Under the pieces are notes generated by a model, which saw only the letters and a list, made by a program, of their open reading frames with translations, searched no databases and was not told the origin of the DNA. A stretch of 8,851 nucleotides of DNA, taken from a virus (lineage: Duplodnaviria; Heunggongvirae; Uroviricota; Caudoviricetes). The stretch lies in the IMG/VR virus record IMGVR_UViG_2778261667_000005, positions 1-8,851 of that record; one strand, written 5' to 3'. The stretch's first letter is position 1, and every line of letters starts with the position of its first letter. Shown in pieces: positions 1-8,851 of this stretch. Both the position numbers and the translations under genes were made by a program.

Positions 1-1
1 G

Positions 2-214
2 GATAAATCGCATAAGGAAACTTGTGAAGTATTCAGCAAACAACCGCCGAGAACCCTCGCCCAATGCGGGCGGGGAGCAGTCACGAAAGCGCCTGGTGGC
101 GGCAGTCATCAGAAAGTGAGCCTGAACGGAAAGCGGTCGGTTTTCCCGGATCACGGTTCAAAGGAAATGCCTGAACCGCTACGCAAGAAAATAATGAGGG
201 ACCTGGGGCTTTAA
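2..214 (+). CDS. hicA: HicA-family toxin (mRNA interferase), 5' end truncated by window edge
   Basis: Frame 2 is open from the first base with no start codon in the window and ends at TAA 212-214. The translated C-terminus ...APGGGSHQKVSLNGKRSVFPDHGSKEMPEPLRKKIMRDLGL has the HicA pattern (GSH, conserved basic patch, P-x-H, C-terminal LGL) and resembles E. coli HicA as I recall it. It is followed 30 nt later by hicB. Not in the ORF track because the start lies outside the window. Confidence 0.7.
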   Translation, partial: DKSHKETCEVFSKQPPRTLAQCGRGAVTKAPGGGSHQKVSLNGKRSVFPDHGSKEMPEPLRKKIMRDLGL

Positions 215-244
215 GCCCCTGCCTTTTTCAATAGGAGTTTCTCT

Positions 245-676
245 ATGTTTAACTATCCAGTAAAACTGGAGCGCGACGACGAAACCGGTGCGTATGTCGT
301 ATCATGCCGCGACCTGCCTTTGTTTAATTCCGTGGGTGACTCAGTTGAAGAAGCCTTGCTTGAGGCTGGTTATGGATTGGTTGCAGCGGTTGCGATTGAG
401 ATTAAAGAACGGCGACCTGTGCCCACTGGTAGCAAGCCAAAAGAAGGAGAGTATGTTGTCTCCCTGCCAGTACTACCAGCAATGAAGGCTGCACTCCACA
501 ACGCGATGATAGAAACTGGTACACGTAAAGCAGAGTTGGCGCGCAAACTCAGAAAAAATGGAACACAGATTGATCGGCTTCTCGACGTCGAACACTCATC
601 AAAAGTTGAAACTGTCGAGCTTGCGCTGCATCAACTGAATAAAAATATCGCTGTATCTGTAACTTCCATGCGGTGA
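245..676 (+). CDS. hicB: HicB-family antitoxin (HicB fold plus C-terminal DNA-binding domain)
   Basis: 143 aa ORF with SD AGGAG at 233-237, 7 nt before ATG 245. N-terminal MFNYPVKLERDDETGAYVVSCRDLP... matches the HicB N-terminal fold pattern; the C-terminal third (...TGTRKAELARKLRKNGTQIDRLL...) looks like a small HTH/RHH DNA-binding module. Sits directly downstream of hicA in the canonical toxin-antitoxin order. Confidence 0.8.
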   Translation: MFNYPVKLERDDETGAYVVSCRDLPLFNSVGDSVEEALLEAGYGLVAAVAIEIKERRPVPTGSKPKEGEYVVSLPVLPAMKAALHNAMIETGTRKAELARKLRKNGTQIDRLLDVEHSSKVETVELALHQLNKNIAVSVTSMR

Positions 677-4990: not shown

Positions 4991-5604
4991 GCTTCATCCT
5001 CCAGTCGCGCGATTTCTTCTTTAAGCGCACGCGTCTTAGCTTGTTCCTGAGACAAGGCCGCTTTAACGTTATCCGCATCTTGCATTGCCTTGTCTGACTT
5101 GCTTTGGATCTTAGCCAGTTTGTCGTTAGCATTAGCGATATCTTCACGGAGTGCATCACGTGATTCTTTCGCTTCAGCTAATTTCTGAGCGTTAGATTTA
5201 ACTCCCTCCCGCTTCTTATTTCCGTCATCAATATTTTTTGCTACACGAGCAAGTTTTCGAGCTAATGACTTCTGGAAAGAAGTTGCTCCGCGATTAAATA
5301 AAGCCGCGAGAGACTGCCCCAAAGCCGCCATTGTTTTTACTGGCTTGAACGGTACTGTTTTACCATTCAGTTTTATCCCAGATATATCACCGGTATCGTT
5401 AACCTGGACTTCCATTGTCTGTTCATCAATACCAACAAGGGTAAACGTGCGCGTCATAATCCCATCTTTCTTCCTGCCATTACTAGCAGGGATCACCCTC
5501 GCTATCTTGTAACCACCTTTACTGATTTCTTTGACGAGTTTTGCCAGCCCCTTTTCGTTTAACTCATCATAATTAAGAAGAACATAATTAGTCTTATTTG
5601 ACAT
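4987..5604 (-). CDS. Hdf-like protein (about 205 aa): globular domain plus coiled coil paralogous to the middle of the 650 aa protein (tentative)
   Basis: I place the start at ATG 5604-5602, which has a near-perfect SD AAGGAG 6 nt upstream, rather than the GTG at 5619 used by the ORF track (no SD). Stop TGA at 4989-4987 overlaps the next start. Pattern IKLNGKTVPF...ALGQSLAALFNR + coiled coil parallels KIKGNDELVAF...SQVCQALSNLIER + coiled coil in the 650 aa protein. Confidence 0.45.
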   Translation of the reverse strand: MSNKTNYVLLNYDELNEKGLAKLVKEISKGGYKIARVIPASNGRKKDGIMTRTFTLVGIDEQTMEVQVNDTGDISGIKLNGKTVPFKPVKTMAALGQSLAALFNRGATSFQKSLARKLARVAKNIDDGNKKREGVKSNAQKLAEAKESRDALREDIANANDKLAKIQSKSDKAMQDADNVKAALSQEQAKTRALKEEIARLEDEA

Positions 5605-6040
5605 TCCAGTCTCCTTCACGCTTTTCGATCGTAAACTGGCGCTCTATGCTGTCATTGATAGGGAAAATGCGATAAAGCGGATTTAGTCGGCAGTTACCGT
5701 TTGTCAATGTGACTTTCAGATCCCACTTCGTTGGCTCAAGATATTTCGTATCGATGAGCAAATACTCTTCTCTCTCACCGCGTTTTGAAGCGTCAACTGG
5801 TCGCGTTTTCCCTGAAATAACCACCGATGGATTTTTCAGGTCTTGCAACCAATATTCGATTTGAGCGTTGCTCACCCAGCTTCGCTTAACACGTAGCGAA
5901 ACAGGAAATGCTATAGCGGATTCTTTCACTACAGCGTCACCAATACTCAAAATCTCAACGCTCTTGCGGCGAAATAAGAAACGGTCAACGACGGCAACAA
6001 ATGCCATGATAAAAATGAAATAATTTCCAAAGTTACCCAT
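5594..6040 (-). CDS. Membrane-anchored 148 aa protein (one N-terminal TM helix); LydB-like putative holin antagonist/lysis regulator (tentative)
   Basis: ATG at 6040-6038 overlaps the stop of the upstream holin-like gene (TAATG). SD GGTGGAG. N-terminal hydrophobic stretch YFIFIMAFVAVVDRFLF followed by a soluble domain. Confidence 0.4.
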   Translation of the reverse strand: MGNFGNYFIFIMAFVAVVDRFLFRRKSVEILSIGDAVVKESAIAFPVSLRVKRSWVSNAQIEYWLQDLKNPSVVISGKTRPVDASKRGEREEYLLIDTKYLEPTKWDLKVTLTNGNCRLNPLYRIFPINDSIERQFTIEKREGDWNVK

Positions 6041-6366
6041 TATTTCTCTCCACCTTTTCCCCCACTCATAATTACGCTTATGAGATTCAAGACATTGCCA
6101 GCTCTGGACTTCAAGCCTTGCAAGATTTCGCTTCCGTTGTTACTGGTAATCAGAACAACGCAGAAAATGATACCTTCAGGCCATTCTTGGCTAACCGCCA
6201 CTCCATACCCCGCAAGCCCGGCTGTTACCGCAGTAAACAATTCACTCGCAAGATTGAGCAGGGACGCAGAAATGCGCCCGTCTCTAACTCCGAGAAGGAA
6301 TACGCCGGTTCCACTTAGTAGGGATGTTATGACTACTACAGCCAGATTTTCATAATCTGCAAACAT
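6040..6366 (-). CDS. Holin-like small membrane protein (108 aa, three predicted TM helices, charged C-terminus); LydA-like
   Basis: ATG 6366-6364 with GGAGG upstream. Hydrophobic segments LAVVVITSLLSGTGVFLLGV, LLNLASELFTAVTAGLAGYGVAV and GIIFCVVLITS, with C-terminal GGKGGEK. First gene of the coupled operon. Confidence 0.5.
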   Translation of the reverse strand: MFADYENLAVVVITSLLSGTGVFLLGVRDGRISASLLNLASELFTAVTAGLAGYGVAVSQEWPEGIIFCVVLITSNNGSEILQGLKSRAGNVLNLISVIMSGGKGGEK

Positions 6367-6444
6367 ACCCCTCCAGAAATAACATCTAATGCGCCACTAA
6401 CTTAGTCAGTTTGTTATTTCTTTACAGAACATCTTGTGACAGCT

Positions 6445-6464
6445 CCCCGCCCTGTCGGGCGGGG
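6445..6464. other. Perfect 8 bp GC stem-loop (CCCCGCCC tgtc GGGCGGGG) without a U tract, in the intergenic region upstream of the holin-like gene
   Basis: Read directly from the sequence. Sits about 80-100 nt upstream of the minus-strand operon start. Neither strand has a T-run after it. Confidence 0.5.
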
Positions 6465-6530
6465 CTTCCCACTTCTTAGTCCGCACCGTCTGTATGACGG
6501 ATTCTGGCCTTTTTACGATTTGTGCTTCCC

Positions 6531-6562
6531 TTTTGTTTGCGGGATAGCGCTTTTTGTTTGCG
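6531..6562. repeat. 11 bp direct repeat TTTTGTTTGCG x2, spaced 21 bp (two helical turns)
   Basis: Copies at 6531-6541 and 6552-6562, in non-coding DNA upstream of the Dar-like operon. Candidate regulator binding sites. Confidence 0.45.
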
Positions 6563-6667
6563 TCGCAGATTTCGGCTGGCATTAACTTCCGGAGTCTCAC
6601 TGACTCCATCGACACCAGTACACCAATGGGCGCTTTTCCTTTCACGTAATGGGGGGCGCTGACAGAA

Positions 6668-6829
6668 ATGGAATGCGAGCTTATCGAAGCTGACAGCCTC
6701 TGGAACGCGCCGTCAGGCTGAATATGGCAACGGATGAGGAACACACGACTGGAGGAGTGGGAACGCTACAGCGTTCTGGTCAGTCGTGTGGAGCCTGCAA
6801 ATCCTGAATGGACAGATAAACCAGAGTAA
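6668..6829 (+). pseudogene. Decayed remnant of a second tail-fibre assembly (Tfa) gene, C-terminal part only, convergent with the intact tfa
   Basis: Plus-strand frame reads [58 protein letters not shown]. The last about 30 residues match the Tfa C-terminal motif (lambda Tfa ...[26 protein letters not shown]..., and the intact Tfa here ...LINWMKYVQQVEATDTS...). In-frame TGA at 6719-6721. No Tfa-like sequence in any frame further upstream. Confidence 0.5.
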
Positions 6830-6833
6830 AAAT

Positions 6834-6861
6834 TAAGGCCCAGCATCGGGCCTTTTATTAT
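6834..6861. terminator. Bidirectional Rho-independent terminator between the convergent tfa and Tfa remnant
   Basis: Stem AGGCCC (6836-6841) pairs with GGGCCT (6848-6853) around a 6 nt loop. Followed by TTTATTATT on the plus strand and preceded by AAAAATT (T5 on the minus strand). The stops of both flanking reading frames abut it. Confidence 0.65.
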
Positions 6862-7277
6862 TCAGGCTGTTCCGGGAATATTACTGGTAGCGTAGAAGTG
6901 TCAGTTGCCTCAACTTGCTGCACGTATTTCATCCAGTTTATCAGTTGTTGTCTATCTGAATCACTGATAATCCCCAATGAAAGCTGAGTTTGCCAAAACT
7001 GAGTTTTATCCCTGACAAACTGTAGCAAGGATTGTTTCTTCTTTTCCGCCAGATTAATCATTTCAGCTTCAGTCAGTGGCTCTGGTTCTGTTACAACAGG
7101 CTGACCATCTTCATTGGGATTTATTGTTTTCCCCTCTGATTGTTTGTCAAGAAGATAACGATACCGTTTTTCTGAAATGGAAATAGCATCATTAGGCCAT
7201 GACCCATTGCTGTCATAATCATCCTTTAAATTATCATCATAAAAACCATTAGTTGACGGGCTGTAATATATCGTCAT
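6858..7277 (-). CDS. tfa: Tail fibre assembly protein (Tfa/gpU-type chaperone)
   Basis: 139 aa. N-terminal MTIYYSPSTNGFYDD is the typical Tfa start; the C-terminal ...LINWMKYVQQVEATDTSTLP... matches the Tfa C-terminal motif. ATG lies 1 nt after the tail-fibre stop (TAATATG). Confidence 0.8.
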   Translation of the reverse strand: MTIYYSPSTNGFYDDNLKDDYDSNGSWPNDAISISEKRYRYLLDKQSEGKTINPNEDGQPVVTEPEPLTEAEMINLAEKKKQSLLQFVRDKTQFWQTQLSLGIISDSDRQQLINWMKYVQQVEATDTSTLPVIFPEQPE

Positions 7278-7278
7278 A

Positions 7279-8271
7279 TTAATAACCTATAGCTGTCCAG
7301 TACATATTACCATTCCCTTCGCTATTGAAGGTTGCTCCAGTTTTGGATAGAGAGTTAACCGCAATGCTGTAATCAAAACGCCCATGAGCATTGGTAATTG
7401 TTATATTGACGCAGGCAGATGGGAAAGCGATAGGGAAAGTTAATCCCGCGCCAGCATTAGAAATATATCCCCACTGTGTGATGAGTCCAGTTGAAACATC
7501 TTTATGCCAGCCATTAGCGGCTTTTGATACAGTATTTTTTGCTTGATAACGGGAATCAAAATTACCGTAATCTGATGGAGTCACCTGACCTGCGACATTA
7601 ACTGGCTTGTTACTCTGCAAAGTACCATTCTGAAAGCGGAATACATGCTGGCCATTTGCATAAACATCAAGCAGGCCGTCACCGTTCTGTTTAAAACCAG
7701 TATCATTATCGCCAAGAACGATAGAGTTACCGCCAAGAGCATTTGCAGTACCCAGACCAAGAGAACCATTAACCGTTAAACCGTTCCCAATAGTTACTCC
7801 ACCACTGGCATCGTTAATGGTAAGCGGCCTTAAACTATTCCATGTTCCCAGGCTGTCGCCCGAATTGGTCAACATGAAGTATGTGTTTGAACCATCGTTT
7901 CGGATAAAGAATCCATAGTTACCCTGTACGATGCGGAAGCCGTTTCCTGATTTGGAAACAATCTCGCCAGCAGCCGTTAAACCGCCGGTAAGAGTTCCTC
8001 CTGTTATTGGCAATGCACCAATATCTTCAGGCGTGAGGTTAATGTCTTTTGAACCATCAAACGAAACGGAATTAATCTTTCGCGCGGTTTTTAGTTTTGT
8101 GGCTGTTGAGGCGTTTCCGGACAGCTCACCAGAAATGCCACCAACAACTGTTAGATCACCAGTTATTGTGCCGCCTGAACTTTCCAGTTTTTTAGCAACA
8201 TCACTCTTAATAGAGTCGATTTCTTTTTTCAGATTAGTTATATCTGCTGGTATCGTTGTCACTGTTGCCAT
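7279..8271 (-). CDS. Tail fibre protein: stand-alone 330 aa distal (receptor-binding) segment of lambda Stf / side-tail-fibre type
   Basis: Own ATG with SD TAAGGA 8 nt upstream. Contains ...ATKLKTARKINSVSFDGSKDINLTPEDIGA... and ...GGNSIVLGDNDTGFKQNGDGLLDVYANGQHVFRFQNG...GNFDSRYQ..., which are characteristic of lambdoid/P2/Mu-family side tail fibre distal regions. Immediately followed by tfa. Confidence 0.75.
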   Translation of the reverse strand: MATVTTIPADITNLKKEIDSIKSDVAKKLESSGGTITGDLTVVGGISGELSGNASTATKLKTARKINSVSFDGSKDINLTPEDIGALPITGGTLTGGLTAAGEIVSKSGNGFRIVQGNYGFFIRNDGSNTYFMLTNSGDSLGTWNSLRPLTINDASGGVTIGNGLTVNGSLGLGTANALGGNSIVLGDNDTGFKQNGDGLLDVYANGQHVFRFQNGTLQSNKPVNVAGQVTPSDYGNFDSRYQAKNTVSKAANGWHKDVSTGLITQWGYISNAGAGLTFPIAFPSACVNITITNAHGRFDYSIAVNSLSKTGATFNSEGNGNMYWTAIGY

Positions 8272-8280
8272 ATTAATTCC

Positions 8281-8559
8281 TTACGCCCATTCCCGCAGCG
8301 GTTGTTCTAATTGAACTTCAAAACCATCAAACATTTGTTGTTTCAAACTGTCGTTTAAAATACGAACATTAACAAAGAAGCCATCATTTTTAATCACTGT
8401 TGGTTCTTCGTTCTCGCCGTTTGGTATTTCGGTATATGTAATACCTACAACATCAAGAAGGATGTTGTTTTGCAGTTCTTCATTATCGTGCCAGGATATA
8501 CTCTCTAAAAAAGAGTCGTATTCTGCCCTGTCTCTGAATTTCAACGTAATATCTTTCAT
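8281..8559 (-). CDS. Hypothetical 92 aa protein between a LamG-domain protein and the tail fibre (possible adaptor/linker)
   Basis: ATG overlaps the upstream stop (TAATG). In the same reading frame as the downstream fibre gene, separated by TAA plus 3 codons. No motif recognised. Confidence 0.5.
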   Translation of the reverse strand: MKDITLKFRDRAEYDSFLESISWHDNEELQNNILLDVVGITYTEIPNGENEEPTVIKNDGFFVNVRILNDSLKQQMFDGFEVQLEQPLREWA

Positions 8560-8851
8560 TAAATAACCTCAGCCATTTGTTGGTCTGTCAATTCTTTATG
8601 CCAAATGCGTAAATTTTTCACATGACCAAATAAATGACGTAACCCCGCTGTAGTCTGGCCTCCAATACGGATGGTTGCAGAGTTCTGAATATAGGACCAC
8701 GTAGTCTTTGTTTCGCTGGATATGCGCCCGTTACTTACTGAGCACGTAGACTGATCTGACTTTACACGCATCCCCATAACCATTTTTTCAAGCGATGCGT
8801 TTTCGTTTACCCGTCTGTTAGCTCCTCCAATATCGCAATAAGGAAATCCGT
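8559..8851 (-). CDS. C-terminal end of a larger protein with a LamG/concanavalin-like (Laminin_G_3-type) domain; probable tail/baseplate or receptor-binding protein. N-terminus outside window
   Basis: The minus-strand frame stays open to the window end (...GFPYCDIGGANRRVNENASLEKMVMGM...), so the M at 8783 used by the ORF track is internal. C-terminus ...ATIRIGGQTTAGLRHLFGHVKNLRIWHKELTDQQMAEVI matches the terminal beta-strand signature of LamG-like jelly-roll domains (F-G-h-h-D/N-h-R-I-W/Y-x-x-x-L-S/T-x-x-Q/E-h). Confidence 0.45.
   Translation of the reverse strand, partial: GFPYCDIGGANRRVNENASLEKMVMGMRVKSDQSTCSVSNGRISSETKTTWSYIQNSATIRIGGQTTAGLRHLFGHVKNLRIWHKELTDQQMAEVI

Follow-up and report, generated by a model that had tools for sequence, protein, structure and literature searches.

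Probable decay of a Cin-type invertible tail-fiber segment in a D6/P1-like phage-plasmid contig

The window analyzed here, i.e., the whole stretch of 8,851 nt, is the complete contig PTSF01000038.1 of the draft assembly GCA_002965845.1. Its minus strand carries ddrB, ddrA, darA, hdf, lydB, and lydA, and positions 5400-6435 share 95.8% identity with Escherichia phage D6, which is itself a phage-plasmid of the P1 type; judged by its sequence, the window is a contig of a D6/P1-like phage-plasmid. The locus is anchored by lydA, which in D6-like phage-plasmids adjoins cin on the left. To the right of lydA follow D6-homologous intergenic DNA, two pieces of an IS200/IS605-family TnpB element, a fragment of the serine DNA invertase gene cin, a stub of a U-type tail-fiber assembly gene (tfa), a bidirectional terminator, and a cassette of tail-fiber genes on the minus strand (Table 1).

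Table 1. Features between lydB and the right-hand end of the contig, with the evidence for each
Feature	Position	Strand	Evidence and remarks
lydB	5594-6040	-	Clear Pfam LydB match
lydA, holin gene	6040-6366	-	95.8% DNA identity to D6 lydA/lydB; weak Pfam LydA holin match
lydA-cin intergenic DNA, D6-homologous	6367-6435		Alignment with D6
Right end of an IS200/IS605-family TnpB element (piece A)	6436-6503	-	~90% identity to elements of E. coli plasmids; aligned with L007 2507-2576
Internal tnpB fragment (piece B), ~residues 207-236	6496-6585	-	Alignment with L007 3009-3098 and D6 cin
cin (serine DNA invertase) pseudogene fragment	6578-6686	+	Alignments with cin of D6, pCR-0543_3, and pLD93; tblastn with P1 and D6 Cin
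U-type tfa fossil (Mu/P1 type)	6685-6829	+	Last ~46 codons and stop (6827-6829); blastn, four-way alignment, tblastn, Caudo_TAP
Bidirectional intrinsic terminator	6835-6854		AAGGCCC-loop-GGGCCTT with T-rich runs on both strands; detected on both strands
Intact tfa, 139 aa, U'-like C-terminal half	6858-7277	-	Caudo_TAP, E 1.3e-27, full model; tblastn with P1 U', E 2.8e-26
Distal tail-fiber protein, 330 aa	7279-8271	-	Pfam Gp34_trimer (1.2e-29) and Gp53-like_C (4.6e-14)
92-aa ORF in the fiber cassette	8281-8559	-	No Pfam match; ORF of equal length at equal position in related plasmids
Large tail-fiber protein, C-terminal 96 codons	8559-8851	-	Frame open to the contig end

The terminator is common to both convergent tfa genes and is conserved in P1, Mu, and D6, and the intact tail-fiber operon presumably uses it. 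The 3' end of the large fiber gene shares 95% identity with a 967-aa fiber gene of NZ_CP123334.1. The 92-aa ORF overlaps the stop codon of the large fiber gene and sits between it and the 330-aa fiber gene, and counterparts of the same length and position are found in several P1/D6-like plasmids (L002, L009). The contig ends inside the large tail-fiber gene, ~1.2 kb before the expected crossover site cixR, and this break is probably a consequence of fiber-gene repeats shared with other prophages and not of the cix site itself. At the opposite end (window 1-676, plus strand), next to ddrB, there are a hicB-like antitoxin gene (245-676) and a hicA-like toxin gene that the start of the contig truncates; their Pfam matches are weak or faint, and the HicB-like ORF has no NCBIfam match.

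The identity of the stub was established at both the DNA and the protein level. A blastn search of window 6430-6870 against 50,697 phage records returned matches of 177-179 nt (window 6694-6870) with 83-85% DNA identity and E values of ~7e-49, landing exactly on the center of the invertible segments, from the U 3' end across the terminator to the final 13 nt of U', in P1, P7, Mu, D108, SfMu, D6, and others; P2-like phages share ~90% identity over window 6694-6811. With tblastn, residues 131-148 of P1 gpU align with 6694-6747 (94%) and residues 148-175 with 6743-6826 (82%), and the joint E value of 4.5e-16 (search space, the window) makes the similarity to Tfa significant in a real alignment. 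The 43-aa stub peptide, stitched by hand with its frameshifts corrected, scores 40.8 bits against Pfam PF02413 (Caudo_TAP), well above the model cut-off of 22.1 bits, but covers the C-terminal part of the model only (positions 86-131 of 131). The decayed plus-strand tfa frame that the earlier note had proposed, lying beside the terminator and convergent with the intact tfa, is thus borne out by blastn, tblastn, the Caudo_TAP match, and the terminator call.

Its limits and its lesions differ from those first described. Alignment with the intact U genes of P1, Mu, phage 899, and D6 puts the start of the U-derived DNA at 6685/6687 instead of 6668; the first 19 nt of the interval originally assigned to tfa (6668-6686) are cin, the peptide 'MECELI' at 6668-6685 corresponding to 'MERELI' at Cin residues 114-119. 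The N-terminus of U is indeed gone, but the loss is nearer three quarters than the two-thirds given before, since ~46 of 175 codons (143 nt) are kept. Relative to the four intact U genes, the stub has lost 10 nt at 6693/6694 and 2 nt at 6741/6742, lesions seen in none of the four, and the U frame is shifted between them; because the loss adds up to 12 nt, the parts flanking both deletions look in frame. The TGA reported to interrupt the frame does exist, at 6719-6721 in the cin/terminal frame, but the stretch in which it lies is out of frame, and the codon appears in the frame that had been followed because the two deletions displace the U frame between them. In addition, the tblastn alignment with P1 gpU shows that the otherwise conserved proline of the EW-P motif has been replaced by T. 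What is left corresponds to ~residues 128-175 of U only, split over two frames and with cin DNA directly 5' of it, and has neither an uninterrupted frame nor the N-terminal domain of an intact U of ~175 aa. The stub is accordingly to be regarded as a gene fragment and not as a gene, and both deletions and the loss of the proline are consistent with neutral decay.

DNA homologous to the stub is found in 2,073 of 5,426 complete E. coli genomes, at up to six places per genome. In every phage and E. coli match listed it lies under annotated tail-fiber assembly genes, and the stub is therefore not a conserved independent small gene, the reading that the earlier note had set against its own.

Fused straight onto the 5' side of the stub is the fragment of cin. 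The earlier note had seen no invertase gene in the window, which has to be corrected in so far as a remnant exists and abuts the stub: 109 nt that match residues 84-119 only of Cin in tblastn searches with the P1 and D6 proteins (E 1e-12). The fragment lacks the catalytic N-terminus, the enhancer region, the C-terminal DNA-binding domain, and cixL. No complete invertase of the kind that accompanies Gin, Cin, Pin, or Hin segments is left at the locus, residues 1-83 being replaced by the insertion sequence fragment and residues 120-186 being deleted; the enhancer, placed by the P1 record at cin nt ~19-90, falls within cin nt 1-249, which are missing from the window. Two indels within the fragment, -1 in GGG (6628-6630) and +1 in a G run (6651-6656), give rise to a TAA inside it (6647-6649) and may reflect either true decay or sequencing errors at homopolymers in the draft assembly.

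At the junction of cin and U, GCTTATCG is followed directly by AAGCTGA, with GCTTATCG present in cin and GCTTTCCG in U. The two genes share 2 nt exactly (CG) at this point, within an imperfect microhomology of 8 nt (GCTTwyCG). The exact 22-mer across the junction had no match in GTDB representative genomes, IMG/VR, or JGI metagenomes, and the junction was found in none of the 5,426 complete E. coli genomes nor in the plasmid and phage collections.

On the other side of the cin fragment, homology to D6 ends at 6435, 37 nt short of the point where cin starts in D6, and resumes inside cin (6581-6686). The intervening ~142-150 nt consist of two pieces of a TnpB element with ~90% identity to their counterparts, and IS200/IS605-family elements similar to 6436-6585 are common on E. 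coli plasmids; the protein of the copy used as reference, L007, scores 355.6 bits with the NCBIfam model guided_TnpB. Piece A, which was aligned with L007 by eye, comprises the final 9 codons of tnpB with the stop codon and 40 nt 3' of the gene that include a subterminal hairpin (CCCCGCCC/GGGCGGGG, stem 6445-6452 and 6457-6464). It meets piece B at the 8-nt repeat GACGGATT (6496-6503), copies of which lie 440 nt apart in L007, so that ~432 nt of tnpB are gone. Piece B in turn joins cin at another 8-nt repeat, GGCATTAA (6578-6585). The 5' 249 nt of cin are thereby replaced by a doubly deleted TnpB-element fragment (6436-6585, minus strand) in which the right-end hairpin, the last 9 codons, and ~30 internal codons alone survive, with the left end and the 5' part of tnpB gone. 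With Rfam (E<=1, entire window) no RNA family was detected, and thus no recognizable TnpB guide RNA either, and no plasmid in PLSDB has this TnpB element at the lydA-cin position of the window. All three junctions at the locus, i.e., those between the two tnpB pieces, between tnpB and cin, and between cin and U, show short microhomology only (2-8 nt).

Intact counterparts of these remnants are available in related phage-plasmids. In D6, lydA (-) is followed by cin (+), cixL, S' (+), and U' (+), which meets U (-) and S (-) tail to tail, with cixR within S; cin adjoins lydA in both D6 and P1, and P1 and Mu have the same tail-to-tail U/U' center as the window. The plasmid pLD93-1-90kb carries lydA (-), cin (+, 561 nt), Sv (+, 1,065 nt), and U (+, 528 nt), with U facing U' (-) and S (-), so that a U-type gene stands on the cin side in the same order and orientation as the remnants in the window. 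The intact cassette and invertase for which the earlier note had suggested looking at this position are thus found beside lydA in D6 and pLD93-1-90kb. The corresponding blast span measures 2,595 nt in pLD93-1-90kb vs. 751 nt in the window, and the difference of 1,844 nt is fully explained by a 1,690-nt deletion between cin and U, the 12 nt of small deletions, and a net loss of 143 nt in the insertion sequence/cin region. The ~1,690 nt missing relative to pLD93-1-90kb comprise cin codons 120-186, cixL, the whole of Sv, and U codons 1-~128.

The crossover sites were looked for with three kinds of query: 20-mers of D6 cixL and cixR, allowing up to 5 mismatches; the core AAACCnnGGTTT, allowing up to 2; and a 15-mer consensus, allowing up to 3. 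The window gave chance-level matches only, with no cix-like site among them. The same 15-mer search recovers both cixL and cixR in L002, the closest relative with this fiber, which shares the fiber genes of the window at 95% identity. In D6, P1, and L002, cixL lies at the 3' end of cin, and the corresponding region is deleted in the window; cixL has thus demonstrably been lost in the lineage of the window. For cixR the situation is different. In L002 it lies 1.53 kb upstream of the stop codon of the large fiber gene, which would be equivalent to position ~10,090, ~1.2 kb past the contig end. The earlier observation that the window holds no site of the cix type is therefore confirmed but says little on cixR, and a pair of crossover sites is not found within the window, the expected position of cixR being beyond the contig.

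Taken together, we consider the locus to be very probably a decayed Cin-type invertible tail-fiber segment (C-segment) of a D6/P1-like phage-plasmid. The invertase remnant, the U/U' center homology, and the intact relatives support the proposal of the earlier note that a lost invertible cassette has left its footprint here, and the evidence supports taking the stub for the putative remains of the second, cin-proximal arm. One complete cassette (6858-8851, minus strand) faces a 143-nt tfa stub and no fiber gene; the layout is the relic of a tail-to-tail arrangement and not such an arrangement itself.

The homologies, the breakpoints, the missing parts (including cixL), and the intact counterparts can be read from the sequences themselves, and from these a possible history can be proposed, in no fixed order of events. 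The ancestor would have had the order lydA, cin, cixL, Sv, and U, tail to tail with a U'-type tfa and its fiber genes, followed by cixR and the constant fiber part, and the ancestral Cin would have inverted the segment to join either fiber/chaperone set to that constant part. An illegitimate deletion of ~1.7 kb at the GCTTwyCG microhomology, of which the last CG is exact, may have fused the cin fragment to the 3' end of U, taking with it the parts listed above as missing relative to pLD93-1-90kb. Separately, an IS200/IS605-family TnpB element would have landed upstream of cin, and two further microhomology deletions at GACGGATT and GGCATTAA would have removed most of it together with cin codons 1-83, including the enhancer. 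The stub presumably gained its -10 and -2 nt deletions afterwards. It may have survived only because the endpoint of the large deletion fell 5' of the bidirectional terminator used by the intact operon, and would itself be non-coding debris without function. Since only one crossover site can remain, the switch would be inoperable even with an invertase supplied in trans, and with at most one site and no alternative fiber gene, the phage would be locked on the minus-strand fiber set whatever invertase the host may have.

Whether the alternative arm was deleted in place or the locus was recombined had been left undecided in the earlier note. A simple deletion is better supported, as cin and the stub are collinear with the intact relatives and meet at a 2-nt microhomology. 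The other course, in which the stub would stem from a cassette exchange, i.e., recombination at the tfa-3'/terminator center swapped the arm without any in situ deletion, draws on the mosaic nature of the region, in which homology to P1 and Mu extends from the 3' end of U across the terminator but no more than 13 nt into the other tfa. A D6-like plasmid of E. marmotae (NZ_CP099353.1, L009) is instructive in this respect. It carries a cassette with a 139-aa Tfa, a 330-aa fiber, and a 92-aa ORF of the same lengths as in the window; the compared tfa end (window 6807-7400) is 90% identical, and the 330-aa fiber is likened by gene length only. There, the cassette expressed in the window forms the cin-proximal silent arm of a tail-to-tail segment and is therefore a genuine invertible cassette. 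The homology to this plasmid starts only at window 6807, and the cassette is paired with a different tfa, which shows the tfa-3'/terminator center to be a mosaic joint also; given this mosaic, exchange at the center clearly occurred in the family. Such an exchange accounts for the mosaic on the right-hand side of the terminator; it leaves unexplained the fusion of two non-homologous genes at Cin residue 119 and U residue ~128, which has the order and orientation of intact relatives and needs a deletion. As the sole origin of the stub, exchange is therefore improbable, though exchange at the center and deletion beside it are compatible. In the same E. marmotae plasmid, an IS3-family transposase gene lies between the recombinase gene and the silent fiber arm (L009 8890-10118), a further insertion sequence at the boundary of cin and the C-segment.

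A more speculative suggestion, to which we assign a very low probability, is that the center formed by the U 3' end, the terminator, and the U' 3' end is kept as a recombination 'landing pad', or that a 31-aa peptide encoded by the stub modulates fiber assembly. If true, the landing pad would let the phage-plasmid recapture a new alternative fiber cassette from Mu-, P2-, or P1-like prophages resident in the same cell.

It is well known that assembly graphs become tangled at invertible segments and at 3' ends common to several tfa genes, and the junctions might for this reason be artefacts, with a chimeric short-read contig standing for a strain that has an intact, inverting C-segment. The window is the whole contig of a draft assembly and ends inside a repetitive tail-fiber gene, and DNA resembling the fossil occurs in the E. 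coli genomes in the numbers given above. However, the 2-8 nt shared at the junctions are far below any assembler k-mer, and the pieces are collinear with, and in the same orientation as, those of the intact relatives. The stub also bears private lesions of -10 and -2 nt that none of the intact U genes in the comparison has, the identical contig is recorded for two samples, and the E. coli plasmid pCR-0543_3 independently has a similar natural deletion. An artefact is thus extremely improbable.

The same slight chance is given to a functional mini-Tfa peptide made from the 31-aa ORF at 6734-6829 (plus strand). This ORF is ATG-initiated and in the terminal Tfa frame, and the retained D6 DNA upstream of cin (6367-6435) could conceivably carry a promoter. 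Against this, the ATG exists only because the 2-nt deletion puts GATGAGG in a new frame, no Shine-Dalgarno sequence is visible 5' of the ORF, and a T stands in place of the EWP proline that is conserved otherwise. All phage and E. coli matches listed have annotated tfa genes over the homologous DNA, and the cin/U junction occurs in no phage, plasmid, or E. coli record and in no genome, viral, or metagenome contig scanned. With its frameshift-made ATG, no visible Shine-Dalgarno sequence, and no conservation, the ORF was rejected as a gene.

Gin, Cin, Pin, and Hin complement each other, and cixR may survive past the contig end, but the idea that the segment still inverts, using cixR, an unrecognized second site, and an invertase in trans (e.g., Pin of e14 or a prophage homolog of Gin/Cin), has next to no probability, since searches of the window with up to 3-5 mismatches yield no cix-like site and inversion of an alternative arm without a fiber gene would only inactivate the fiber operon.

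Under the preferred reading, that of a C-segment decayed by deletion, the locus can be compared with several known systems. With the C-segments of P1, P7, and D6 it shares the position beside lydA/lydB and the darA operon, the match to Cin residues 84-119, and the tail-to-tail U/U' center with the same bidirectional terminator, at 83-85% DNA identity. Unlike these, the window keeps 109 nt of cin and 143 nt of U, with cixL, the enhancer, the alternative Sv, and most of U deleted, and its expressed cassette (139-aa Tfa, 330-aa fiber, 92-aa ORF, and large fiber) differs from those of P1 and D6. The stub is as similar to the U of Mu (83%) as to that of P1, and the terminator and the convergent arrangement of the Mu G-segment (S-U tail to tail with U'-S', inverted by Gin) are conserved; unlike Mu, the window belongs to a P1/D6-type phage-plasmid and not to a Mu-like phage, and the system is here apparently non-functional.

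Truncated cin genes, missing C-segments, and a presumed loss of host-range switching have been described for pSvP1, pTZ20_1P, and pJIE250-3, with insertion sequences involved in pSvP1 and pTZ20_1P, in the latter case IS26 (Venturini et al., 2019; PMC6906374). Among D6-like Salmonella plasmids, the inversion region is the most divergent part (PMC6799933). Our comparison adds pCR-0543_3 (L003 5171-5880), in which an independent cin pseudogene, frameshifted and with a 26-nt deletion, is followed by a truncated tfa. There, a shared TAAAC links the left half of cixL (…CCTAAAC), where a deletion starts, to a different tfa, and an annotated 77-aa 'tail fiber assembly protein' remains; either Cin acted at a quasi-cix site or the deletion arose by microhomology alone, and no insertion sequence was seen at the junction. 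The window resembles pSvP1, pTZ20_1P, pJIE250-3, and pCR-0543_3 in that cin is truncated or altered and the alternative arm lost, with switching presumably abolished. Unlike these degenerate P1-like plasmids, it has three short-microhomology deletions together with a TnpB-element fragment, whereas the deletion of pCR-0543_3 starts within cixL, at the TAAAC that it has in common with tfa.

The decay is of a known kind in a known system, and the locus is a new, precisely mapped instance without any new mechanism, adding to the reports that P1/D6-like plasmids tend to lose cin and the C-segment. It illustrates how a phage-plasmid may lose a programmed host-range switch: with three small illegitimate deletions and an insertion sequence remnant, the invertase, one crossover site, and one fiber arm are gone, while one intact fiber set and the shared terminator are left. 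Reading the locus in this manner could also aid prediction, as the host range of the element would be fixed.

For annotation, a 112-aa GTG-initiated ORF on the minus strand (6406-6744) is also worth mentioning, as it crosses the tfa stub and the cin fragment in antisense and extends into the tnpB pieces. It was rejected as a gene, with no Pfam or NCBIfam matches and a frame that is a chimeric read-through of tnpB fragments and antisense cin/tfa. Neither this ORF nor the 31-aa ORF should be taken for a gene, and gene callers might annotate the 112-aa one.
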